Of a stretch of 64,000 nucleotides of DNA, positions 5,408 to 61,195 are shown piece after piece. Source of the DNA: Octopus vulgaris (taxonomy: Eukaryota); contig OX597820.1 in NCBI GenBank assembly GCA_951406725.2, forward strand, positions 113,398,001-113,462,000. The letters are read 5' to 3'. Positions within the stretch are counted from its first letter, which is position 1, and each line of letters begins with the position of its first letter. A program made the translations under genes and the position numbers. The notes below the pieces were generated by a model. That model was not told where the DNA came from, ran no database searches, and saw only the letters and a program-made list of their open reading frames with translations.

Positions 5408-5857
5408 GGATCTTTTCGGTTTGACCGGCAGTTTTTTCTAGCTGTGTCATATGAAATTGTCACCCATAATAATGACCCTAGTATCAATCTATTGCATTTC
5501 AATTTGTTTTAGGGTTAGCGTTAGCTAAGGTTAGTTAGGGTTAGGGTTAGGGTTAGGGATGGGGGGAAGGGTATCTTTTTTTCTTCAGAAATGTAAATAA
5601 ACACAATCTGTTTCTTAAACGAGGGACATATTCATACGGCACAGAATGTTTTCACCTCAATAGACGTCATTGATTGGTTGAAATATCAGAAATTGAAGAA
5701 AATAAAACAACAAATATCTTACAAACTATAGAATTTTCTCAATGAAGCCAAGAGAAAAAGATGTTTTATAAAAACATTCTACCAGTATTCGAAGTTTAAA
5801 GGTGTTTAGTTACGTGGTAATTATTTTAAAAAACTGCCGGTCAAACCGAAAAGATCC
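5408..5857. mobile_element. MITE with 30-bp perfect TIRs, possibly Merlin-like, with an internal TTAGGG tract
   Basis: TIR ggatcttttcggtttgaccggcagtttttt (5408-5437) and its reverse complement (5828-5857); 8-bp near-TSD aaattaac/aaatttac. Confidence 0.88.
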
Positions 5858-6904: not shown

Positions 6905-7553
6905 GAGTTTCAAATTTTGGCACAAAGCTAACAATGTCGAGAGGGTGGGGCTAAATCGATTATATCGACCCAGTTTTCGACTCGCAGTTATTTTATCGGC
7001 CCCAGTATTCAACTGGTGCTTATTTTATTGACCCTGAGAGGATAAAAGGCAAAGTCGACCTCAGCAGAATTTGAACTCAGAACATAAAGACGCGCGAAAT
7101 GTCGCTAAGCAATTTGTCCGGCGTGCTAACGTTTCTCATTTCTTTATTGCCCACAAGGGGCTAAACTCAGAGGGGACAAACAAGGACAGACAAACGGAGT
7201 AAGTCGATTACATCGACCCCAGTGCGTAACTGTTACTTATTTAATCGACCCCGAAAGGATGAAAGGCAGTGTCGACCTCGGTGGAATTTGAACTCAGAAC
7301 GTAGCGGCAGACGAAATACCTATTTCTTGACTACCCACAAGGGGCTAAACACAGAGAGGATAAACAAGGACAGACAAAAGGATTAAGTCGATTATATCGA
7401 CCCCAGTGCGTAACTGGTACTTATTTAATCGACCCCGAAAGGATGAAAGGCAAAGTCGACCTCGGTGGAATTTGAACTCAGGACGTGGCGGCAGACGAAA
7501 TACCGCTAAGCATTTCGCCCGGCGCGCTAACGTTTCTGCCAGCTCGCCGTCTT
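6905..7553 (-). mobile_element. SINE family B head-to-tail trimer (two B1 units plus an older B2-type unit)
   Basis: Three successive family B bodies with junctions at about 7320 and about 7137. Confidence 0.88.
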
Positions 7554-7878
7554 GATCTGAGAAAAATGTTAGTCAATGAATAATATTTTTTTTAAATCAC
7601 CATATGCACTATGAATAGCAAAACTCAAATTAATGACATGCGTATCTATTCTTAACATATTCCGGCGGATTCGAACAAGAGTCTACTGATTGCTGTTGCA
7701 TTTCGTCATTGGAGAACGACTCTTTCAGACAAATGTATGTTCAGAATACGCTCAATTCATTGGAGTGGGAACACGTTGAGAACAGGGGGTTTAATTTTGT
7801 TGCGCAATTTTTTCAATCCAAGCTAGACTAGACCAATGAATCTTATAAGTTATTGGTTCGATCTGGTATAGCTGTAGC

Positions 7879-8111
7879 AAGGCGGCGAGCTGGCAGAAAC
7901 GTTAGCGCGCCGGGCGAAATGCGTAGCCGTATTTCGTCTGCCGCTACGTTCTGAGTTCAAATTCCGCCGAGGTCGACTTTGCCTTTCATCCTTTCGGGGT
8001 CGATAAATTAAGTACCAGTTACGCACTGGAGTCGATGTAATCGACTTAATCCGCTTGTCTGTCCTTGTTTGTCCCCTCTGTGTTTAGCCCCTTGAGGGTA
8101 GTAAAGAAATA
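7879..8111 (+). mobile_element. SINE family B (B1 tail), full length
   Basis: TSD ggta(t/c)agctgtagc at 7865-7878 and 8112-8125. Confidence 0.92.
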
Positions 8112-9849
8112 GGTACAGCTGTAGCTGAGGAGATAGACAAGGAGAGAGGCAAGGATGAAACACTGGTGTTCCCCCACCAACAACAACAACGAATCGAGTG
8201 TGAAATGAACACACATTCGTCTGAAAGGAGATGTTACTCAACGAAATACACCAGCGATTAGTATACACACGTTCAAATCTGCTGGAAAGTATTAAGAATG
8301 AATACGTCTGTTTCGTAATGTTGTTTTAATTATTTCGACAAGCATAGGAAACATCACGAGCTTAGGTATAAGCTCCCCAAAGAAGTATAGACTTCATCAT
8401 ACTTGCAGAAGTTGTGATGAGAAAATTACTTAGTAAATGTACCGTAAATACAGGCGTGTCGCGTGACTTTTAGATGCCTTCTGCTACTTTTGTTTCGAGG
8501 ATCCATCCCCTCAGTCAAAATTTATAATCTACGCACCTTTTATTCATAGCTATATTTTACTTTATTCTGTCTGAAGTTCAATATTTCACCTTATCCTAAA
8601 GAGCATATTTAGATATGCTCTTTAGTGGTACAATGAAATATTTTTATAAGAACTTTTGCAGGTACAATGCATTACCATTTTATTTCTTGAAATTTTCAGT
8701 TAACAGAGTTTAATTATTGTTCAACATCTTAACCAAAGTAATAGATGACTCATCTACGTATTTTGATTTTAACATGGGGCACTGCAACCGCGGAGGTCAC
8801 CTGCAACCGTACGGGTTACAGGGGCTTAGCGATGGCCCTGCATAAATAACACTGGCTGATGGTGAAAATTATATTTTATAGAATGAATTAATCGGAGAAA
8901 TTAACCAATAAATTTCTTAGGAATAAAATAAAATTACGTTACGTTAAATTATTATTAGTTGCATTGTACCATGTCCATCGGCCAAGAGAATTGATTCTCA
9001 ACTGACATAGTCCACCTAGCTGAGAGAGAATGGAAAACTTACCGCTGGGTTGTAGAAATAGTAAAAGATATAGTGGTACTTGAAAATTGACTCTGCCTCC
9101 AGTGATTAGTGAAGATGAGTTCGATTACATGTGGGAGTCCGAAAAAGTTTGCTATTCATTGAACAGCTGATAAGAATATAGCCAAATGTCTTCGCCTCCG
9201 TCTGCCCATCTACTTGTCGGTTGAGAACTAATATTTCTTCTGATAAGTTCTGAGTTCTGCGTATACAGGCATCGATCACCGAGTGTATATACCACTCAGC
9301 TAACTTTGATATTTAAATGTGTGTGTCGATGGATGGATGGATGGATGGATGTGTATGTTTGTATTATTTATTTAAAGGTCACAATACTTGTATTAAAGCG
9401 CTACTAATAGTTTCATATGTTGAGAAAACTCAATCATATTCTTAAGAAATTGAATGATAGAAGAAACGCGAAAAACTGAGAAGGCAGCATATAAAAAACG
9501 CATACAGTAAACAACGGAAAACGGAAAATGTAAAAAGTAAAAAAGTAAAAGACCTTAAATGATAAGGCTAGAATGGTATCAGTTCAGTCAGGAATAGGCG
9601 GAATTTTCCAATTCTTCAAAATATATTTATACATATGCATGCAACCACTGAAAATTTCTTTTTCAGCGATCACATCTGCTTCACCTCCCAAGCTAACCAA
9701 TCATATCTATCGACTTTTCTTTCTTTCTTATCGCATACATTGTTGTCAGCTGAGCATGCTATATCTATGATCCAGCACCGTTTGCTTTCTTTCTCAACAC
9801 TATGTCTGGTTTCCTATTCTCTATCTCATGGTCGCACTGATTCATAAAA

Positions 9850-12898: not shown

Positions 12899-12961
<63 letters not shown>

Positions 12962-13060
12962 AGAAATAAGAGCTAAAATGCTCTAATGCTGTAGTCAAAG
13001 CACCTAATTATATACAAATATACAAACATGGACTATAATCGTCTGAAAACGCCGTTCGAG

Positions 13061-13117
13061 GATTCCTTATACTACATCCAGTTTCGGCAATTTCTGTTGC
13101 CTCATCGGTAAGAATTC
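13061..13117 (-). ncRNA. Type I hammerhead ribozyme (CCGATGA core variant)
   Basis: Minus strand reads gaattctta CCGATGA ggcaa cagaaa ttgcc GAAA ct ggatgt a GTA taaggaatc. Confidence 0.7.
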
Positions 13118-13296
13118 GCTCTACTTTAGTCGCACTCAGTGACAATTATAGTTTTCCTTTTCGGTAAAACATTGCAAACTGCTGTCTATTTTAATTTTAA
13201 GTATACACGTTAGCGATTCCCTAAATCATCCAAATATTACAATGATGAAAACATATACAGACGGAGAATTAAGTCCGAAATCTGCCGAAATAGGGT

Positions 13297-13354
13297 GAGT
13301 CCTTACTGATGAGGCAACCGGATTTGCCGAAACTGAATTAAGTATGAGGAATTC
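13297..13354 (+). ncRNA. Type I hammerhead ribozyme, intact core
   Basis: tcctta CTGATGA ggcaa ccggat ttgcc GAAA ct gaatta a GTA tgagga; stems I, II and III all pair; predicted cleavage after 13344. Confidence 0.85.
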
Positions 13355-13714
13355 TCGGGCGATTATAGTCTCTGTCAGTATATATGTATACAATTATGTG
13401 CTTTGACTACATTAGACCATTTTAGCTCTTATTTCTAGCAATGTATGTGTTTCTAATATCCTAGTCACATTTAGTGACAATTATAGCTTTCATTTTGGGT
13501 AAAAAAAATTGCAAACTATTGTCTATTTTGATTATATCTGTGTGTGTGTGTGTGTGTGTGTGTGTCTGTGTGTGTATCTATACACTTGTTGGCGATTTCT
13601 TTTCCTTCTTTGATTTATATATGTGCGTGTGCATGTGTGTTTGTGCGTGTGTGTGTATTTGTGTGTGTGTGTATGTGTGTGTGTGTGTGTGTGCGTTTGT
13701 GTGTTTGTGTGTTT

Positions 13715-25770: not shown

Positions 25771-25772
<2 letters not shown>

Positions 25773-27201
25773 GAAACAGTTTCTATCCCAGTCGGTCATC
25801 CCGGTTTTCAAACAGGGAAACAGATCCCTCGCAGTCAACTATCGCCCAATCTCACTCACCTCCCACATCATTAAAGTGTTTGAAAGAGTGTTAAGATCAA
25901 GGATAGCTGACTTCCTGGAGACCCACAAACTCCTAAATGCAAATCAGCATGGCTTTCGCTGTGGCAGGGACTGTCTAACACAGCTCTTACACCACATTGA
26001 AGATGTACTCAAAGCCTTGGGAACAGGTTCGAACTCTGACGTCATATATCTTGACTTCAGTAAAGCGTTCGACAGGGTAGACCATAACATCCTACTCTCA
26101 AAATTGGCAAATGTTGGAATCCGTGGAAAAGTTCTACACTGGATTAAGTATTTCCTGGCGAATAGAACACAACATGTTGTAGTTGATGGAGTCCACTCAA
26201 ACCCAGCAAAAGTCACCAGCGGTGTTCCCCAGGGAACTGTTTTGGGTCCGCTACTCTTCATAATTTACGTAAACGACCTTTCCAGCGTCGTACATTACTG
26301 CAAAGTGAAAATATTTGCTGATGACACTAAGCTCCAGCAAATCGTCAATGAAGAAGCAGACCGAACTCAACTCCAGTCTGATCTATATGCTGTGAGTCAA
26401 TGGGCAGACAGAAACAAAATGCAACTGAATGAGGGAAAATTTGAGCTGATGCATTTTGGAAGAAATTCCTCACTAAAACAACCATACTCTCTCCCTTCAG
26501 GGGAACCGCTCACAGCCTCTAACAATATCAGAGACCTGGGTGTAATTGTTGATGACGATCTCAGTTGGAGTGCACACATCAACAAGAAGGTCGATATAGC
26601 TCGTAGGATGAGTTCCTGGATCTTAAGAACTTTCCGGTCCAGAGAACAAGGTGTCATCATACCACTTTTTTCCTCCTTTGTACGGCCACACCTTGAATAC
26701 TGCTGCCCACTGTGGTCTCCTCACACAAGACAAAACATCTCCAGAATTGAGTCACCCCAGAGGGCACTCACTAAACAAATTGAAGGCATGGCTGCTCTCG
26801 ATTATTGGGATCGCCTTAAAGCCTTGAAACTTTACTCCCTCCAGCGTCGCCGTGAGCGGTACATCATTTGTACGATGTGGAAAATATACCGCCAACTTTG
26901 CCCAAACGACCTAAACATTAACTTCAAGGTTCATCCAAGACTTGGACCACGGGCTATACGTCCCCTGCCCAATTCAAGATCACAACATACATGTACACTG
27001 CAACATAATTTCTTTTCCTCAACAGGCCCTGCCCTATTTAACATTGTCCCGAGGGAGATCAAAGAGGAAAAGGATCCCATCAACTTTAAACAGAGTCTGG
27101 ATAGATTCCTTCAAAGAATACCAGATAAGCCACCCATAATTGGATACAACTCACCCAACAAGAACTCACTACTTGAACAAAACTGGATACAACTCACCTA
27201 A
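25771..27201 (+). CDS. Non-LTR reverse transcriptase, C-terminal part of ORF2 (about 476 aa, no true start codon)
   Basis: [47 protein letters not shown] and RDLGV motifs; the upstream IYIY residues are microsatellite. Confidence 0.93.
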
Positions 27202-27537: not shown

Positions 27538-28437
27538 ATACAAGATAAGAAAATGGAGAAATACATCTAAATCAAATATCAATTACCAGATAATACTCAA
27601 TCACATACTTTATTAAACCACCACATAAGAGACTGTAGGGTTAAACATAAAAAAGTAGAACAAAACAGTGTACATAAAGGAATGTACATAAAAAAGTGTA
27701 CATAAAAGAGTAATGTTGTATAATAAGTAGAATATATATAAAAAAAGAGAATATAAATATAAGTAAATATAAATATAAGTAAATATAAATATAAGTATGG
27801 ATTACATCTTACAGCTGTTTCGGCCATGTAGATAAGTATGTCTCATTTTACCAATATTAGTCTTTTATGGTAGGTCAATATATAGATATAAATGAGACAT
27901 TTACAAAAATATCATAAGGCCTCTTCGGAGATATACATATACACATGAGTGCATATACTCACACTCCTATACACATAAAAATATACATATTCATAATGAT
28001 GTAAATAAATAATATAAATTAGTAAACATATATATGTTCCACATTCAATGTTTCAGTTTTTCAACTTAATATTGTGATAATAAACATACACATATTAGTA
28101 CCTAGATGCAAATATACATAGTCAATAGTACATTATATTACTTCCTACTAATTTCCAAAGTGTCATTAAAGTTAGCATCATTATCGTTGTCAATACCATT
28201 AATGCTACCATTATTATCATTCATAATATTATTAACAACGCTTACATTAGGATCCAAAGTGGCACATATGTATGTCCGGGTTCCAGTTAGTAATTTTCCT
28301 TATGACATAAATACACTATTGGATTTGAATTTAAATTATCATTGTCTTCCTCGGTGGTTTAATAAAGTATGTGATTGAGTATTATCTGGTAATTGATATT
28401 TGATTTAGATGTATTTCTCCATTTTCTTATCTTGTAT
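27538..28437 (-). mobile_element. Non-coding HHR element bounded by an inverted repeat of about 84 bp
   Basis: About 27538-27621 is the reverse complement of about 28354-28437. Confidence 0.75.
27803..27935 (-). ncRNA. Type I HHR with extended stem II and palindromic stem III
   Basis: Minus strand reads tatatct CCGAAGA ggcc...(about 90 nt with inner stem atgtctcattt/aaatgagacat)...ggcc GAAA cagct GTA agatgta. Confidence 0.75.
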
Positions 28438-28623
28438 TAGTAATTTGTGGTAAATCATTCTACCTTTGCCCATATAATACAGTAAATGAATTGATTGCAT
28501 CGCAATCCTTAACATCTATGTATTAACTTTGTTGGGTACTTCACTAGCAGTATATTGGATATATATTATCCCATGGAGGGTTGCATTTACAAGCGCTATC
28601 TCAATTTATAAATAAATGAATAT

Positions 28624-29366
28624 GATCTATGTACTTGTGATATTTTTCTGTATTTACCCCCAAACCTTCGTGAGCTGTCTAGAGTAAACATTATCTGAGA
28701 GAAATTTTCTTTAAGTAGTAGAAATGCTAAGAAAATTTTTTTTGGCTGCTATTTCTACTAAGTTCAGTATGTGGCAAAGTAATTTATTTTACTAAGCCCT
28801 AATTATATAATGTAATATTTTGAATTCGCCTTAAATGGTCCTTTTACATACTGAACACTTGGTGAAATTGATTAATTAATTAATTTTACCCTCAATTGTT
28901 GATATTATAATTCATATCTCTCGGTCATACTGCCTTGGTTCTCGCGGTTAAAATATAATGTTTGCTAGATAGACCACGTGGGTGGAATGGGGAGTGCAGA
29001 ATTTTACGCCTGCGCATTTTGAATTTGTTGACACTGTTAGTTGGAGTGGTTCATCTGAAGCGACAAGTCGCTGATAGGTAAAGTTCCTTCTTTTTAGTGT
29101 TTCCAAATCCAAATTAAGAAATTTTGAGCTGACGAAAGAAATGCTGATTTTATTTGGCTAATCTTGAAACGTTGACGTACTCAAACGATCTATGTACTTG
29201 TGATATTTTTCTGTATTTACCCCCAAACCTTCGTGAGCTGTCTAGAGTAAACATTATCTGAGAGAAATTTTCTTTAAGTAGTAGAAATGCTAAGAAAATT
29301 TTTTTTGGCTGCTATTTCTACTAAGTTCAGTATGTGGCAAAGTAATTTATTTTACTAAGCCCTAAT

Positions 29367-29374
<8 letters not shown>
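28624..29374 (+). mobile_element. Retrozyme-like element: 563-bp unit with 188-bp terminal redundancy
   Basis: 28624-28811 matches 29187-29374; an HHR immediately precedes the second copy. Confidence 0.85.
29123..29185 (+). ncRNA. Type I hammerhead ribozyme, intact
   Basis: tttgag CTGACGA aaga...tctt GAAA cg ttga c GTA ctcaaa; predicted cleavage after 29179. Confidence 0.88.
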
Positions 29375-29418
<44 letters not shown>

Positions 29419-30006
29419 GTATGTATATATATATATATGTATGTATGTATGTATGTATGCATGCATGCATGTATGTATGTATGTATGTATGTATGTAATA
29501 TTAATGATTCGAGAGAGAATCAGGTATTTAAATGGTAGGCTCCAAGTTGGGTCGAATTAACTTGTAGACATCACCTAGTAAATACCAGGTTGAGCTGGAG
29601 TCTAGTTGTGATCCCACTAGATTGTTCTTCGTTTGTTTGAAATGCAACGCATTCTCTGATGAAAACGGATTTTTGTTATGACGCAATGTACTCATTCATC
29701 TATTTAAGAAATACATTAGAAACAGTTGTAATGAACTGACATTTATCCATCGTTTATTTATTTATATATTTATTTGCTATGTGTGTCTGTGTTCTCGCGT
29801 GAAGGCACGTCAGTAAGTAGTTAGAACAAAGGGCTTATAATCGTGAGGTTGTGAGATCGATTCCCGGATCTGGCTGCGTGTTGTGCTCTTGGGCAAGACA
29901 TTATTTCACTTTGCTCCATTTCACTCAGCTGTAGAATTGTGTTGCGACGTCACTGGTGCCAAGCCGTATCGATCTTTGCTTTTCCCTTGGATACCATCGG
30001 TGGCTT

Positions 30007-30862
30007 TGATACCATCAGTTGATACCATCTCTGGTAAGGGCTTTGAAATAAAACCAAGAAGAAGTTCCAGACACCCAGCTGAGTACTTGACAGACACTGA
30101 CTTTGCTGACGACATCGCTCTTATCAGTGATTCTCTCTCCAATGCCCAGTCTCTTTTACAATCTCTTGAACAAGCCTCAAATTGTGTAGGTCTTTACCTT
30201 AATGAGACCAAAACTGAATACATAAACAAGTGCCTGTCCAACAGTGATTGCATCATCCACACTCTCAACAGTGCACCTTTAAATATGGTTTCTGATTATA
30301 AATATCTTGGGTCATACATATCATCATCTGGAAAAGACTTTCTAACTAGAAAGGGTATGGCCTGGTCAGCCTGTAATGACATGCATAAGATCTGGTCATC
30401 AAATCTAAGTAGAGACTTCAAACTTGAAATATTCAAAGCCACAGTCGAACCAATCCTACTATATGGCTCAGAAACCTGGACGTTATCAAAGAAGCTTGAG
30501 AGGCGGTTGGATGGAACCTACACTCGCCTCCTTATGAGAGCTCAAAATCTCTCGTGGAGGCGCCATCCAACTAAAATGCAAATATATGGGAAATTACCAC
30601 CTGTGTCATCTCTTGTGAAGGGTAGGAGAGTCCAGTTTGCTGGACATTGTTGTAGAGCTGAAAAAGAAGTAATTTCTACTCTTCTCCTCTGGAAGCCATC
30701 TACTCGCAACACCAGAGGGCGCACACTCTCCTACCCTGATGTAATCTCCAGGGATACAGGCATCCAGCAACAGGACCTCCGTAATGCTATGATGGACCGT
30801 GAAGTCTGGCGCAACATGGTAAATTCCATTGTCTCGACCACGGTCGAACAATGATGATGATG
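30007..30862 (+). mobile_element. 5'-truncated RTE-clade LINE
   Basis: 11-bp TSD atcggtggctt at 29996-30006 and 30863-30873; (TGA)n tail. Confidence 0.92.
30021..30854 (+). CDS. RTE RT C-terminus, open frame (partial)
   Basis: DTDFADDIAL, GLYLNETKT, YKYLGS, LLYGSETW and FAGHCCR motifs. Confidence 0.9.
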   Translation, partial: DTISGKGFEIKPRRSSRHPAEYLTDTDFADDIALISDSLSNAQSLLQSLEQASNCVGLYLNETKTEYINKCLSNSDCIIHTLNSAPLNMVSDYKYLGSYISSSGKDFLTRKGMAWSACNDMHKIWSSNLSRDFKLEIFKATVEPILLYGSETWTLSKKLERRLDGTYTRLLMRAQNLSWRRHPTKMQIYGKLPPVSSLVKGRRVQFAGHCCRAEKEVISTLLLWKPSTRNTRGRTLSYPDVISRDTGIQQQDLRNAMMDREVWRNMVNSIVSTTVEQ

Positions 30863-31026
30863 ATCGGTGGCTTGGGAGAGGAGACTGGTATCCATGGATG
30901 ACTGCTGGTCTTCTATAAAACAACCTTGCTTGGATTTTTGCCTTGGAGGGGAACTTGTAGGGGCAATCTCATGGTCATTCATGATCGAAAGGTGTCTTTA
31001 CCTTTTCCTCATATATATATATATAC

Positions 31027-31067
<41 letters not shown>

Positions 31068-31068
31068 C

Positions 31069-31102
<34 letters not shown>

Positions 31103-31131
31103 ATGTATATATATATGTATGTATGTATATG

Positions 31132-31201
<70 letters not shown>

Positions 31202-31568
31202 ACTAATGTTGGATAAAATTTTTTTCGAAAAAAGAAATTTTATCAATGGCCAGCATATCAAAAAATACCTTTAAAGGTTAAATTTATAAATAACTTATAA
31301 GTTCTATTAATCTGGGAATACATTAAAGCCCTTTTAGGGGCTACTTTATTTGAATTCTTACTATCGGGTAACTAATTTCATGTTATTATATAACTGACTT
31401 CACAATTTGGGTATAACGTATTGGGAATTCCTAAACACAAGATCCAAAGACAGTTCGGTATTCTCTGCAAATACACAAAAACCGTTTTAAGGGCTACATA
31501 CTTTGCATTGTTGTTATTGGATAAGTGAAACGATTATGAAAACAGAACCAAGGGATAAGCCTCACTTT

Positions 31569-31596
31569 CCCGGGAATTACCGGGTACGTCAGCTAG
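31569..31596 (+). mobile_element. Helitron 3' terminus (5' end not located)
   Basis: Hairpin cccgg-gaatta-ccggg, then CTAG|T 8 nt downstream. Confidence 0.65.
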
Positions 31597-31635
<39 letters not shown>

Positions 31636-32172
31636 AAGACGATGGCGTAATGCTAAGAGATGAGAAAGATTGGAGGTAGGTAGCAACCTGCCTCCACGTA
31701 AGTAGTCTTTGAAAAATATAAATTCGTTTCTTCATCAATCAGGAATCGCAGGTGTTAAAAAGTGTCTGAGCAGTTCGGTCCCTTGTTGGAGTTACCACTG
31801 CTCACCCTATTACTTACCTGATGACCTGTAAAATGCTTGTATTTCTTAACAATGCTCAGCCAGTTTGGTGTGGCTAGCAGATTACTACTGATCCTCTCGG
31901 TATTGGAAGAAAATTGCCAGAAAGCATTATTCGAAGCAAGCTAAACATATATTGTTGGAATATAGGACTTTTATTGAGTACTCATCAAAAAAATTATTAG
32001 ATTTTCTACGGAGAATAGCCATCGTTGTTCAAAAATTGGTTGTATTTTATACGCATATTGCTTACCTCTCTATCTCTCTCTCTCTTTCCCCCTCCTCTTT
32101 CTCACTCTCCCCTCGCCGTTGAAATGCTGACCAAATCGAAGAAATAGGAAGGGATCGCAGAGTTTCTTTTAT

Positions 32173-32281
<109 letters not shown>

Positions 32282-32648
32282 GTACGTGATAATTTGCTCA
32301 AGTGAACTTCTAACTTCATATCTGTCAGATGTTTTGGAATCAGTGGTTTTGTTTTTGTCGCAATAAAATCACAACTATAATCATTTCTCTTTCCTATTGT
32401 CTGTCCATATCAATGCCAGGTATTCATAAACCTGAATAACAACGATTGCTAAGCGAATGCTACGATGAAAAGTACGCGTATTGACAATGTAAAGGCAATG
32501 TAGATTCGACGGAGGGGGAGAGAGCTAACGTACAGAACAGACATTTAATCACTATAAACAAATCATTTGACCACGTCGTTCAGTAAGGAATTGCGGACCC
32601 TCAACTGTCGTTTACGGTAGGCGAGTTCACCATATATACATATATCTA

Positions 32649-32690
<42 letters not shown>

Positions 32691-32697
32691 TCTATAT

Positions 32698-33555
32698 AGG
32701 TGCAGGAGTGGATGTGTGGTAAGTAGCTTGTTTACCAACCACATGGTTCTGGGTTCAGTCCCACTGCTTGGCACTTTGGGCAAGTGTCTTCTACTGTAGC
32801 CTCGGGCCGACCAAAACCTTGTGAGTGGATTTGGTAGACGGAAACGTATATATGTATATATGTTTGAGTGTCTGTGTTTGTCCCCCTAGCATTGCTTGAC
32901 AACCGATGCTGGTGTGTTTATGTCCCCGTCACTTAGCGGTTCGGCAAAAGAGACCGATAGAATAAGTACTGGGCTTACAAAGAATAACTGACTGAAACAA
33001 GTAAAAGAGTAAAGTATATATATCTATCTATCTATCTATATATATATATATATATATATACGATATAGTGTATATTTAAACACATGAGGAATCCACTTAT
33101 AGGAATTCAACACGCTATAGAACCTAGCTGTTCTTTCTAGCGTGTTAAATTCCTATAAGTGGATTCCTCATGTGTTTAAATATACACTATATCGTATATA
33201 TATATATATATATATAGATAGATAGATAGATAGATAGATATATACTCTTTACTCTTTTACTTGTTTCAGTCAGTTATTCTTTGTAAGCCCAGTACTTATT
33301 CTATCGGTCTCTTTTGCCGAACCGCTAAGTGACGGGGACATAAACACACCTGCATCGGTTGTCAAGCAATGCTAGGGGGACAAACACAGACACTCAAACA
33401 TATATATATATATACATATATACGTTTCCGTCTACCAAATCCACTCACAAGGCTTTGGTCGGCCCGAGGCTATAGTAGAAGACACTTGCCCAAAGTGCCA
33501 CGCAGTGGGACTGAACCCGGAACCATGTGGTTGGTAAGCAAGCTACTTACCACAC
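32698..33555. repeat. Palindrome of about 850 bp with a SINE A copy in each arm
   Basis: About 32713-33117 is inverted against about 33138-33555; both SINE copies carry the same two internal deletions. Confidence 0.92.
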
Positions 33556-33819
33556 ATATCGTATGACTAATATATAGTCTTTTGGACTAATTTTTTACAC
33601 GTTAGATCACTGGAAATGTAAATTTTAATTAATTTCCATTTCCCTTTGATATGATTAAATATTGTAAGTTTTTAGGATAATTTTCGATTTTAAAAGTTGG
33701 CTTCTTTTATTGCCGGCGAAGGACTGCGGCTGCGCAGTAGATTTTGAAAGAGTTAGGACGTATAAATACGGGGAAGGTAGTTTTGATCGCCCCGTGTGTA
33801 TACGTTTAGCCCTCGGTGG

Positions 33820-33893
33820 TCCTGCTGAAGAAGATTACACCTGGCGAGTTCCTTGACTTGCTAAACTAAAATCAGAAACCAATTGGTCCAGGA
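33820..33893 (+). ncRNA. Type I HHR with palindromic stem III
   Basis: tcctg CTGAAGA agatt...aatca GAAA ccaattg GTC cagga; the basal stem II pair is mismatched. Confidence 0.75.
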
Positions 33894-33998
33894 ATATAGA
33901 TGGTAAAATGTTTTTTTTATTTTTCATTTTGTTCCCGTCGAATTTTATCCCTAATTTTTGTGGTTATAGAACCTAGCTGTTCTTTCTAGCGTGTTGAA

Positions 33999-34205
33999 TG
34001 GCCCAAAAGTAGGTTTACAGTTATTCAACTATCTCTTCCGCATTTGTATATTAACAGTTTAGATCTTAATTATAGAAAAATATGAAACCATTATTCTATG
34101 CTAATTTAGTTAATTGTAAAATAGAAATTTAAATGTAATACAATGTTTTAACAGAAATTTAAAGTGCCTACGTGATAACTGTAAACCTACTTTTGACCCA
34201 CCCTA
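33999..34205. mobile_element. Tc1/mariner-type MITE
   Basis: TIR tggcccaaaagtaggtttacagttat and ataactgtaaacctacttttgaccca, with TA at the right flank. Confidence 0.7.
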
Positions 34206-34519
34206 TATATTTTTTTACTTTTTTACCTGTTTCAGTCATTTTACAGCAGCCATACTGAAGCATCGCCTCAACGTTCTGCCTTGAATAATTTTTAGTCGAA
34301 TGAATCGATCCCAGTATTTGTCTTCTGCTTGTTTTTTGTTTTTTTTTTCAGCCTTGTACTTACCCAGTCGGTGACTATTGCCGAACCGCAAAGTTTCCGG
34401 GACCTAAACACACCATCAGCGTTGTCAAACGGTGGTGGAACATAAACAGAGAAGCAAAGACACACACAAACACACACACATACACACACGCGCGCGCAGA
34501 CGCAAATACTTATCTATCT

Positions 34520-34890
34520 ATCTATATTGTTTTCACTGTCCTGTTCTTGTTACCACTTTTACCCTCCGCAAAAAATCCCAAATTTTATTTAATTTGCTTT
34601 GCGGGAAGGACTGTTTCAATGAAGTCGCGTCTTGTCTTTACCTTCGGAGCGGAGTAGATGAAACAGGGACATTTGAAGAAGGGGAATATTCCTTATGTTG
34701 TATGTCTCGTTTCTCTGTTGTTGTTGTTTTTCGTTGTTTGAAAAAATGTTCGTTTCTATGATTTTGTTTTTATGTTTTCGTTTCTCATTGTGTTCAACGT
34801 TTTTTTATGTCCTGTACCCATATTTGCATGTATATATACATATATATGTAGGTATGTACATATATGTATGTATATACGCATATATTTATA
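34520..34890 (+). repeat. Dispersed repeat family, unclassified (related copies at about 21990-22260, 35550-35750 and 36140-36465)
   Basis: Shared actgtcct...aaattttattt...gaagg..ttc...tgtcc(t)gt.cccatat pattern ending in (TA)n. Confidence 0.65.
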
Positions 34891-34899
34891 AATTATTTA

Positions 34900-34995
<96 letters not shown>

Positions 34996-35028
34996 GAAAG
35001 AATGTAGTTGAATGACGATTTAACAAAA

Positions 35029-35127
35029 TTCCTTTATTCTCGACATATGTTTCGAAGACTGCATATTCCTAATTTCGAAGGAATAAGGGGTGTATTATGC
35101 CGCCTTCTCATCAGGAAAGACAAGGAA
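35029..35127 (-). ncRNA. Type I HHR (mirror copy)
   Basis: Reverse complement of 35250-35347 with an intact core. Confidence 0.85.
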
Positions 35128-35249
35128 CTTATGTCAGCATCATGATGAACAAAAACTTTTAGATTACTGCCCACACGGAGTTATTATCGCTATGGACTCC
35201 GTGTGGGCAGTCATCAAAAAGTTTTTGTTCATCATGATGCTGACATAAG

Positions 35250-35347
35250 TTCCTTGTCTTTCCTGATGAGAAGGCGGCATAATACACCCTTATTCCTTCG
35301 AAATTAGGAATATGCAGTCTTCGAAACATATGTCGAGAATAAAGGAA
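35250..35347 (+). ncRNA. Type I HHR, intact, with palindromic stem III (ACATATGT)
   Basis: ttccttgtctttc CTGATGA gaaggc...gtcttc GAAA catat GTC gagaataaaggaa; predicted cleavage after 35334. Confidence 0.88.
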
Positions 35348-37399
35348 TTTTGTTAAATCGTCGTTCAACTCCATTCTCTCATTTATTTGTACTAAAAAAA
35401 CACACAAATTTCCACACGAAAGCACGTGATCTCTGCCCTTGGCATGTAGCTTCAACCGTGTTTTTCTGACGTGAATTTGCTACCCGGGTATCGGTTAACC
35501 GAATTATCCATACTAGGATAATTCATTCAACTACTTATATATATATATCTATATTGTCTTGTTTTCCATTTGTTTCTTTCATTGTTGCAAAAAAGTTCAT
35601 ATTCCATGTATTCGTATTTCGTATCTCATGTTTTCGTTTTTTAATGTTGTTTTTGTTCCGTGACATCCTATGCCCACATATGCATATGTATATACGTATA
35701 GATGTAAGTATGTACATTTACGTATGTATATATGCATATATATATATATATTATTTATATCATTATATGATTGAACGCCACGAATTCCTTTTCCAAGTAG
35801 GTTTAATCTTAATAATTCTGATGCGACACTATTCTATCCTATTACTCTTTCGTTTTCTCTCTTCCTTTCTCTTATTCTTTTACCTCCCCTTCTTCCCCTC
35901 TCGCTTTTTTTCTCTTATCATTTCTCCAAATCTTTTCCTCTCCCCTTCACAGTTCTCTGCCTGTCACTCCCTCTCCCTCACTATTTTGCTTTCGAGGCTC
36001 ACACTAACTTTTCCTAACTTGTGCGTCTTTCTTTCTGTCTGTTGCAGCTGGAGGAATGAGACGCATTCTTGTCTGTCTCCTGTCCAAGCTTGTTTCTCCG
36101 TGTTAGCCATCTCACCTCGTTTAGGCTTAGCAGCCGTCGCTGTTTGTTTTTACTGTCCTCTTTTTGTTACCAATTTTGACCCTCCACAAAATGTCAAATT
36201 TTATTTAGTTTGTTTTGCGGAAGCAACTGTTTTATCGAAGGCGTATTTTGTCTTTGAATTGCTCGAAATACGGATTAGAAAGCAGCCGACTGATGAAGGG
36301 TCGTTCGTTATGTTACTTGTCTTGTTTCCCATTAGTTTCTTTCGTTATTGCAAAAAAAAAACAGTTCATATTCCATGTATTTGCATTTCGTATTTCATGT
36401 TTTCGTTTTTTATGTTGTTTACGTTTCGTGACGTCCTGTGCCCACATATACATATATATATATATATAAGGACCTAAATCCTTCAAAGGGATTTTTTATT
36501 ATAATACGTTCTAGTGGAGAGTATATTGGCTTTTTTTTTTTTTTTTAATTAGTTAACTCTATAATTCTTAGTATTAAATAGGGGTTTTTTTCATTAACTT
36601 ATCTGTTGGTTGATTGTCTATTTTCCTTTTTCTTTTGTATAGACGGTAATTGCAAATGTCGTTAACAAATATTTATATATTGTGTATTGTCATTTGAATT
36701 AATGCTTAAGTGGCTTTATATATTTTTCTGTTTTTGATCTATCTGGCGTTCGGTTAATTATTATTTAATTGTTTGCTCCTTTTCGGGATATTGTAAAGGT
36801 CTTCATATTTTTGTTGGCATAACTCATTCATTCCAATAATGAATTCCCAAACAAAACCTAATTTGTGATTTCAAAACGATAATATTTCGTTTTGTTTTGA
36901 ATTAATTAGACTTGGAAACAACTTGAAGAGTTTTTGTTGGACATATGCACCAACTTGGAATAAACTAACGTCTACGCTTCTATTTTACCTTTCTTTATTA
37001 TACTGTGTGTGTGTGTGTGCGTGTGTGTGTGTCTATGTGTGGGTGTATGCATGTATATATGTATGTAAGTATACGACAGACTTTTTTCAGTTTCCACCTA
37101 CGAAATCCACCCACAAGGTTATAGCAACAGACACTCGCTCCAGATGTAGAAGAACCCGAAATCATGCAGTTAGGAAACTTCTTACCACACAGCAATAACT
37201 GTGTCTGTAGGCTTGATGATGTCACAAGTATAGGACAGTGTATGAAGGGTCTCGCCACTTATTTCTGCCATTTGTCACTATATATGTGTGTCTGAGTGTA
37301 TGTGCGTGAGATGTTTTTTATGTATGTGTGTATATATATTTGTGTGAAAGTGCAAAATCCGATATATATATATGTGTGTGTATATATATATATATATAT

Positions 37400-39189: not shown

Positions 39190-40200
39190 TGAACTCATTT
39201 ACAGCCGAGTGGACTGGAGCGAGGTAAAAAACTTTTCTTAATTCAAGAATACGGTGCACCATTCGGTTTGGGAATCGAAACCACGATTTTACTATTGTCA
39301 GTTCCGTACTGTTACCGTGGCTGAGTGAACTGGAGCAGTGTGAAATGTGATGTTTTACTCATCAAGAACACAATGCACTGCCCATTCTGGGAATCGAAAC
39401 CACAATCTTATTATTGTGAATTCCACACTGTAACCACAAGGCCACGCACATTCACAGTAGCAAGAAATGAAAATAAAAAATAAGAGCGAGGAACAGTTAT
39501 TAAAATAATGACAGCAACAGCTTAAATCTGTCATGAGCCCAAAGACCGGAACTGAATTACCAGTGTAGTAGCAATAATAACAATACAACAGGTAATAACA
39601 ATAACATTGGTTTTCAAATGTTGGTACAAGGCCAGCAATTTTTGAGGGGAGGGTAAAAGTCGATTATATCGACCTCAGCACTTCACTGGTACGTATTTTA
39701 TCGACCCCGAAAGGATGAGAGGCAAAGTTGAACTTGAACTCAGAAGATAAGGACGGACGAAACACCGCTAAGCATTTTGTCCGGCTTCCATCAATTCGCT
39801 GTCTTTGTAATAACATTTCTACTTTAAGTACAAGGCCTGAAATTTTGGAGGAGGAGGAGAAGGAGGAGGTAAATCGATTACATCGACCCCCAGTTCTTGA
39901 TTGGCACTTATTTTATCGACCCTGAAAGAATGAACGGCAAAGTTGATCACGGTGGAATTTGAACTCGTAATGTAAAGACCGATGAAATGCAGCTAAGCAT
40001 TTTGTCCGGCATGGTAACGGTTCTACCAGCTAGCTACCCTTGTAATAACAATAATAATGGTTTCCAATTTTCTCACAAAGCCAGCAATTCTGAGGAAGGG
40101 TAAGTCGATCACGGTGATCAACTGTTACTTATTTTATCTAACTTGAAAGGCTGAAAGGCAAAATCAGCTTCGGTGGAAATCGAACTCAAAGTAAAAACGA
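39190..40200 (-). mobile_element. Cluster of old SINEs: two D-like fragments followed by three B2-type copies
   Basis: Repeated gggaatcgaaaccac and tcgaccc.gaaag.atgaa.ggcaaa motifs. Confidence 0.7.
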
Positions 40201-41826: not shown

Positions 41827-43393
41827 ATAATGACAATGATAATGAAAATTGTTGTATACAATGCTATGGTGTACTACAACTCATCAGAAAAAAAGGAGCC
41901 AAAAATCGCGTAAATAGTACATAGAATATAATAGAATAAGTCCTTAAAAAAGGTGAGAACATCACTGAAAAAAAGCAACTCTTCAAATATGTCAAAAAGA
42001 GTATGGTCAATATATTAAGAATTGGCTTGGCATTTCAGTTCAGTACAATTGTCGTGTACTATTCCCTGTCGTTGATCAATTTTAAATCGGTCCTCATTAA
42101 GCACATTTGAGACAAAGTTATAACCATCCTGTCTATTCCCATATCTAAAACTACACAACGTATCTTACTATTTTTTAAACAGAATACTGTGCGATTTGAA
42201 GGAAATTTAACGGTTTTTCTATTAACTGAAGCTATTATGTACCTTATGGTTTGCGTTGTGTCACGGAGTGATGAAGAAGAAAACGTTTCGAACAGGGTTG
42301 GCATATTTCTCCAGACGAAAGTTTAACTTCCTATCGATAGCGATACAAGGGTATCAGTCATTTAGCACCCGTTTTTACGAGCGGATACATGATGGTCTTA
42401 TTGTATTATGTTTAATCCTCGTTGGCTCCCGATGTTTAATCCGAAAAGGATTAGATATATTTATATCTTTATCACCCAGTGGAGGATCACAACGAAAAAG
42501 TATACATTGCTTTCTTGCATGGCGCAGTGGAGCTTTGGCATGGCCTTTTGTGACGCTAGAGATAGTAGCCAGATTACCCAAAAATCATATGCTAAAATCA
42601 TAACAAGTAAGAGTGTATTGTATAAGATTGTCATAGATTCACTATTTAGGGGAAAAACAGATGATCGAATCTGGAACGTCCTTTGACACAGTCTGCTTTA
42701 TCAACATTATTACCACCACCGCTACAACCAATGCTACCACTATGGTCACCACCTTCACCCTTACTACCAACCCCCGCCACCACCACCACCATCACTGTCA
42801 TCATCATCATCATCATTACCACCGTCGTCATCTTTACAATCATTACCAACAACAGCAACGCTACAAATACAAATCAACGGATGGGAGCCGTTACATAGCC
42901 GATTGGCCTTGAGAAATAGTACCCATCTCTCCCTCAAACAAAACCATCACATTTAAAAGACATAGGAAGCATCAGACAATGTAGTTCTTGATATGCTATG
43001 CCTGATTTAAAAAAAAAAAACGGAATCATTTTGGAGGAAATGATTTTATGATAATTCTACTCAATCAAAGATGACACATGATTAAAGAACAACAAAACGC
43101 ACCATCAAGGAGCCAATACATCAACTTATAAAAAAGGACACTCTGGATAAATTTGACGTTGTTACACTATATCTGGAAACTAAAAGATCGAACGTCTTCG
43201 ACAATAAGGTTTTATATTTGGTTAAACAAGAACTAGACCTAAAGGGATACCTCTAAGAATCCACTAGACCTGCTAGAAATATGGATCACATTTATTCACT
43301 ACACAGCATTTCATCAGAAAAGGGAAGAGATATATCTCTACGATAGCACAGTGTTTCTCCCTATCACTCTCCCTTTCTCTCCTCCATTCTCTC

Positions 43394-54282: not shown

Positions 54283-54333
54283 GGATGAGTGCTGATGAGG
54301 GAGAAAAACTCCTGAAATATGGCATAGACATCC
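54283..54333 (+). ncRNA. Solo type I HHR with imperfect stem I
   Basis: ggatgagtg CTGATGA gggag aaaaa ctcct GAAA t atggc ATA gacatcc. Confidence 0.6.
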
Positions 54334-60998: not shown

Positions 60999-61195
60999 GT
61001 GTGAAGGCGTGTGGCTCAGTGGTTAGGGTATTCGGTTCACGATCGTAAGGTCATGAGTTCAATTCCCGGCGACGCCTTTTGTCCTTGAGCAAGATACTTT
61101 ATTTCACATTACTCCAGTACACTCAGCTGGCAAAAATGAGTAGTACCTGCATTTCAAAAGGCCAGCCTTGTTACAATCTGTGTCGTGCTGAATCA
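60999..61195 (+). mobile_element. SINE family D-like
   Basis: A box tggctcagtgg, B box gagttcaattcc, then tccttgagcaagatact. Confidence 0.8.

Follow-up and report, generated by a model that had tools for sequence, protein, structure and literature searches.

A non-coding element with a hammerhead motif occupies approximately positions 33058-33999 of the DNA analysed here, a stretch of 64,000 nucleotides from Octopus vulgaris (contig OX597820.1; hereafter the window). To its left lie, in order, a compound (TA)n/(TATC)n microsatellite (32632-32698), a SINE on the plus strand with an intact 5' head and two private deletions (32699-33014), and a (TATC)n(TA)n microsatellite (33015-33060), which is the putative insertion target and meets the element with a 3-nt microhomology at the left junction. 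The element begins with its inverted 5' segment, arm A (33058-33117, minus strand), which is the reverse complement of 33138-33197 with one mismatch (33108/33147). Arm A is joined head to head, via a 2-nt overlap at 33116-33117, to the first 82 nt of the unit (33116-33197, plus strand), which consist of a 20-nt loop (33118-33137) and arm A' and end in a 9-mer (33189-33197). The next block, 33198-33557 on the minus strand, is an inverted copy of the local flank (~32712-33057), containing the microsatellite and the SINE without its first 13 nt. The main body of the element (33556-33999, plus strand) starts with a second copy of the 9-mer (33556-33564), carries the type I hammerhead motif (33820-33893, plus strand) and ends in a 35-nt terminal repeat (33965-33999, plus strand), which matches the first copy of this repeat, around the loop, at 34 of 35 positions (33116-33150, plus strand). 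The host flank that follows (34000-34205) is a MITE-like element whose terminal inverted repeats match perfectly over 21 nt.

When the block is included, the inverted repeat has arms at 32712-33117 and 33138-33557 with the loop between them. The arms differ by seven substitutions (five transitions and two transversions) and by changes in microsatellite length, corresponding to a divergence of ~1.7%. The 9-mer occurs four times on both strands of the window, three of these occurrences being at the locus, and in-silico removal of the 367-nt block between its two copies reconstructs a unit of 482 nt. The coordinates that a first-pass annotation had given for the arms, the duplicated 9-mer, the 35-nt repeat, the 367-nt block and the 482-nt unit were all borne out. 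Two of its statements had to be revised: it had placed a whole SINE in the palindrome, whereas in the right-arm copy 13 nt of the 5' head are missing, and it had started the element at 32698, whereas the left SINE is host flank outside the element.

The hammerhead (33825-33888, conserved core from 33825-33831) is of type I, with three stems and the cleavage triplet, and cleavage is predicted after 33888. A pattern scan of the window found seven cores, whereas 50 shuffles averaged 0.02. The hammerhead fold was the minimum-energy fold of 33820-33893; a wider cut (33815-33900) gave a different fold that was no better than shuffles (z -0.27). Among eight short stretches folded freely, the palindrome centre alone was better than shuffles. 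Stem I comprises 5 bp and stem III is self-complementary, which suits the cleavage of dimers. The pair closing stem II is purine-pyrimidine in the type I hammerhead consensus; the first pair of stem II was A.A here (33832/33874), and with this mismatch the predicted ribozyme may be inactive. Rfam gave no hammerhead match at the gathering threshold in the window or in the E-value mode at 32600-35600. The 40 matches obtained in the latter mode were all below the gathering score, and the top ones were microRNA hairpin models that had matched palindromes or (TA)n.

With the block taken out, the element consists of an inverted arm of 60 nt next to (TA)n, joined head to head to the 482-nt unit with its hammerhead, and then the 35-nt terminal repeat. 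The direct repeat represents a partial-tandem terminal redundancy, in which the true tail could alternatively be the 44-47 nt between two putative priming sites (33151-33197), and 33058-33117 is an inverted 5'-truncated copy joined head to head. For Penelope-like elements, inverted 5'-truncated copies, a tail of 30-40 bp, a hammerhead and a bias towards (TA)n or microsatellite targets are described in PMC8557442, and head-to-head palindromes at inverted junctions together with microhomology junctions in PMC3846280. According to PMC11167929, a Poseidon protein cleaves AT-rich DNA on both strands and extends each of them, and a preprint (bioRxiv 10.64898/2026.07.22.740005) argues that animal retrozymes derive from Penelope and are non-autonomous. 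By its anatomy, the octopus element is likely to be a non-autonomous, non-coding Penelope-like retroelement. An ORF with reverse transcriptase (RT) and GIY-YIG domains, as in autonomous Penelope-like elements, was absent: the longest open stretch of the reconstructed unit was 62 codons, and the main body gave no convincing Pfam match. A search of 12 frames of two elements for a remnant of a GIY-YIG or Penelope protein returned a single weak, unrelated Pfam match (E 0.054). Because no coding remnant was found, membership of the family rests on anatomy. A second copy of the 482-nt unit was not found in the window, and exact patterns of the hammerhead core and a deletion junction gave no match in bacterial and archaeal genomes, which is expected for an animal repeat and carries no information. 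The fold-back noted in the first-pass annotation is thus real as a palindrome and not unusual as a feature, since it is ordinary Penelope-like anatomy; the odd part is the captured flank.

The SINE copies in the two arms, which may resemble the tRNA-derived SINEs of octopus, share the same two deletions, and within the window the deleted junctions were found in these two arms only. The site of deletion 1 was intact in five other SINE copies, and the junction of deletion 2 was intact in three others; a fourth copy (37401) had a different deletion there, and a motif match at 41932 was left out of this count because it is not a SINE. Two other copies carried different deletions in the same 3' region. 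This region is therefore deletion-prone, yet the breakpoints of the two arms are private within the window, where a common doubly deleted subfamily, which would allow two independent insertions, was not seen. The arms also share three clear private substitutions (32712, 32867, and 32921); three further called columns were set aside because they lay in the microsatellite, at a gap edge or at an end. That the arms share these deletions and substitutions supports the earlier proposal of one arm being a copy of the other, and implies that the SINE had been at its site for some time before the copying.

The direction of copying is given by the 5' head of the SINE. The left copy is full from 32699, whereas the right copy begins 13 nt in, in register; because the left copy has these extra head bases without a counterpart in the right one, the left SINE is the likely donor of the block. 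Furthermore, the left SINE is flanked on both sides by similar compound microsatellite, whereas four other SINE copies that were checked end in unrelated sequence or in plain (TA)n. The repeat inside the block is therefore local flank and not a fixed SINE tail. Derived changes numbered five in the left arm and two in the right arm (p = 0.45), a difference that carries no information on direction. Divergence was also compared between the element part and the SINE part of the arms: one substitution in 171 element bases and six clear ones in ~600 SINE-arm bases (p = 1.0) were not distinguishable, and divergence therefore does not separate copying at insertion from later copying.

The right flank locates the target. 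The MITE-like element, of which the window contains no other copy, finishes in a TA run at its right end and is short of ~3-5 outer bases at its left end. The clipped left repeat therefore places the target at the boundary between (TA)n and the MITE-like element, to the right of the left SINE. Judged from these sequences, the empty site would thus reconstruct as SINE, (TA)n and MITE, the insertion having deleted a little of the target without duplicating any of it. The left end of the element adjoins (TA)n, an AT-rich microsatellite target, and in five of the six hammerhead elements examined one end, as set by eye, lay within 8 nt of such a run, against a window background of 6.9%.

The census of six left out one pattern match (40090-40171), which has weak stems and lies inside another repeat family, and added a degenerate core at 27928 that was found by eye. 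Four of the six elements had an inverted segment, and only the present one had a near-identical copy of its own flank; two weaker downstream matches in the flank comparison were to a diverged SINE relative. The six elements had no convincing sequence in common (one 16-nt match). The element at 34990-35386, beside (TA)n, folds back with 192-bp arms and a 14-nt loop, has a hammerhead core in each arm (35263 on the plus strand and 35114 on the minus strand), and has no captured flank. An older element at 12958-13536 (core 13306) has the same layout, again without captured flank: (TA)n, a 169-nt inverted arm (76%) and a 73-nt terminal direct repeat (83%) with a period of ~335 nt. The element with the degenerate core (27538-28623, minus strand) adjoins (TA)n, has an 85-nt inverted repeat that is 100% identical (27538-27622 and 28353-28437), and gave no Pfam match in six frames. 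It is directly adjoined by a young element at 28624-29382 (core 29129), whose terminal direct repeats of 195 nt are 99% identical, have a period of 563 nt and end in (TA)n. A further hammerhead-pattern match at 54292-54332 had no repeat anatomy nearby. The ~9 kb from 27538 to 36468 hold four hammerhead elements together with SINEs, the MITE and a LINE-like fragment, several of them nested in (TA)n runs.

The rest of the window is repeat-rich animal DNA, with a GC content of 24-43% and 123 tandem-repeat rows. A Pfam scan of 14 of the 138 ORFs detected RT domains in two, both 5'-truncated (25771-27198, RVT_1, E 1e-31; 29847-30851, RVT_1, E 2e-5), and by inspection both look like LINE fragments. 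The former is uninterrupted over 476 codons and is followed by a short tandem duplication; its best named relative among the 120 matches listed was from the octopod Argonauta hians (60% identity). A second SINE-like family was observed at 6990-8115, where 184 nt are duplicated in tandem (7138-7504) and two inverted copies lie 324 nt apart (7317-7554 and 7878-8115; 93%), and nine degenerate TTAGGG units at 5509-5558 form a short interstitial telomere-like repeat. The sole Rfam match at the gathering threshold in the window was a weak tRNA match at 61006-61077 (29.3 bits), which is probably a SINE head; ARAGORN reported no genes in the window and missed this match.

Taken together, these findings make it very likely that the block arose by local copying of the flank, whichever route was taken. 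Regarding the route, the element probably inserted in (TA)n between the resident SINE and the MITE-like element, and its nascent top strand probably folded back and copied its own left flank. The first-pass annotation had offered template switching that copied flanking DNA into the element as one of two origins, and the longer left SINE and the clipped MITE end argue for it. The structure of the product, these two features and all five junctions are observed directly; the course of events would have been as follows. A Penelope-type enzyme acting in trans would have cleaved the AT-rich site and started synthesis at both ends, on the right from 33999 and on the left, at the (TA)n end, from unit position 80-82, the latter giving the 60-nt inverted arm. 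Second-strand synthesis from the left would then have passed the loop and produced arm A', which could pair with arm A on the same strand. Synthesis on that strand would have continued through the microsatellite and the SINE to 32712, over ~345 nt of flank. Finally, the 3' end would have re-annealed to the element cDNA 9 nt before the point of exit, which would duplicate the 9-mer, and finished the element.

The block exits at 33197, where arm A' stops matching arm A, and this exit point is explained by the A-loop-A' DNA hairpin, for which -63 kcal/mol is predicted. At the return, the exact microhomology is 2 nt. When the top strand was taken as the primer, the re-entry site scored 6 of 7 in a bulged match and was the sole such site of 497 in the unit, a figure that is optimistic and stands as support rather than proof because the scoring rule was set after the bulged match had been noticed. 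The microhomology would change if base 32712 came from a later conversion between the arms. The 9-mer is better read as a back-slip at re-entry than as a target-site duplication of the SINE, and the product is likely to be a one-off local inverted duplication with no SINE cargo.

Copying of the flank after the insertion is unlikely. In that case, an ordinary insertion with the 60-bp palindrome would have come first, and a template switch during replication or repair at the palindrome would later have copied the flank. Pre-existing inverted repeats are described as driving such switch-and-return events (PMC5453318), the two times are not separated by divergence, and the pairing at the junctions fits equally well. 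However, the return precedes the departure by 9 nt, a class not observed in the human-chimpanzee data as presented in PMC5453318, and captured flank was seen in none of the three other inverted hammerhead elements, including the one at 34990-35386, whose palindrome of 192 bp is longer.

Copying by the other strand during insertion is an improbable variant, in which the first-strand cDNA halted where the top strand had been primed and invaded the flank at 32712; the continuation that it demands, with the flank copied towards the break and synthesis proceeding through the 5' end of the RNA, is equally improbable. This route would directly explain, by analogy with L1 twin priming (PMC11702581), why no more than 9 nt separate the exit from the start of the arm, and R2 cDNA ends are reported to prime sometimes on nearby target DNA (PMC11371274). 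The junction provides only 2 nt of pairing on the side needed, however: with the bottom cDNA as the primer the site scored 2, and 87 of 980 flank sites scored higher. Moreover, the cDNA would have to invade duplex DNA and make a second jump that restored the left junction exactly. Top-strand snap-back at insertion, as set out above, is thus the reading that we retain.

The other origin offered in the first-pass annotation, a SINE that hitch-hiked in the ribozyme RNA, fared poorly. It requires a 5'-truncated SINE to have entered the source element in antisense orientation, generating a 9-bp target-site duplication, and then to have been carried in the RNA of that element, which is very improbable; that the left arm then arose when the fold-back copy annealed to another SINE at the target is no less so. 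The 9-nt duplication does bracket the SINE and its simple-repeat tail, as after target-primed insertion, though the back-slip also explains it, and Penelope repeats can mobilise unrelated sequence (PMC3846280). However, if the right arm had been the template, the left arm should contain nothing beyond it, and it continues in register for another 13 nt. The target would have to carry another SINE, alike in family and orientation, the microsatellite is local and not the fixed tail of the SINE, and the (TA)n run as the target agrees with the clipped MITE end. As a separate candidate, a simple RNA-to-RNA switch between transcripts of the element and the SINE was ruled out, the SINE being antisense to the hammerhead strand.

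An assembly artefact (a fold-back read or haplotypes in opposite orientation) or a pair of independent deleted-SINE insertions is scarcely credible, for although inverted Penelope structures trouble assemblies (PMC8557442) and the 1.7% divergence of the arms could be allelic, the differences are transition-biased (5/7) and mostly polarise against other SINE copies, the block is set between continuous element sequence with clean microhomology junctions, the window contains no N, and the deleted junctions are absent from all other SINE copies in the window.

The formation of inverted ends and the completion of the second strand in Penelope-like elements are described as unresolved in PMC8557442 and PMC11167929. 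The locus is a readable record of one such event, with its donor, direction, exit and re-entry, and, given about six hammerhead elements in 64 kb, many further events might be found in this genome. Taken singly, it amounts to a local rearrangement of a kind with precedents in R2 and L1, and there is no sign of a function. It is doubtful, on this one case, that Penelope-like insertions generally end by a top-strand snap-back able to run hundreds of bases into host DNA. If this were true, they would repeatedly give rise to local inverted duplications and long hairpins, and snap-back could be the route by which elements gain host spacers that later move along with them.

No report of a Penelope-like element with an inverted copy of its own flank was found among titles and abstract openings in the open-access literature, which is weak evidence of absence. 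The closest known systems resemble the locus in different parts. Non-autonomous Penelope-like or non-LTR retrozymes, as described, are also non-coding, with a type I hammerhead, terminal redundancy, an inverted 5' segment and a (TA)n target. By the definition in the preprint, an active non-LTR retrozyme contains two or more units in tandem, every one with a complete hammerhead, whereas the octopus element has one hammerhead in one unit extended by 35 nt and no tandem array, and it embeds inverted local host DNA; it is likened to them by anatomy and not by the sequence of an autonomous partner. The Penelope elements of Adineta vaga (PMC3846280) likewise have palindromic inverted junctions, microhomology without target-site duplication, and host DNA between repeats. 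The captured DNA there is a spacer or a gene whose origin that account does not state, whereas the donor at the octopus locus is the immediately adjacent flank, copied in inverted orientation and still in place.

The four-point template switch, as set out in PMC5453318, shares with the octopus locus the switch, the reverse-complement copy of nearby DNA and the return. The octopus event differs in that its return precedes its departure, the class not seen there, and in that it is tied to a retroelement junction. L1 twin priming (PMC11702581) is similar in its 5' inversion, its 1-10 bp overlap and its templated local insertions: breakpoint duplications of 1-10 bp are given for 10 of 32 cases, and three insertions with inverted reciprocal-end DNA and three with nearby templated DNA are described. 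In contrast to the octopus element, the inverted part of L1 is not duplicated as a palindrome, and target-site duplications are kept. For R2, PMC11371274 describes a class of junctions formed by snap-back onto target DNA nearby, and, as proposed here, the 3' end of a DNA strand starts additional synthesis on cDNA or nearby target before the junction closes. That system was engineered in human cells, the cDNA end is the primer, and priming on nearby target is less frequent than priming on cDNA, whereas the octopus junction favours the top strand as the primer, with synthesis that returns to the element.
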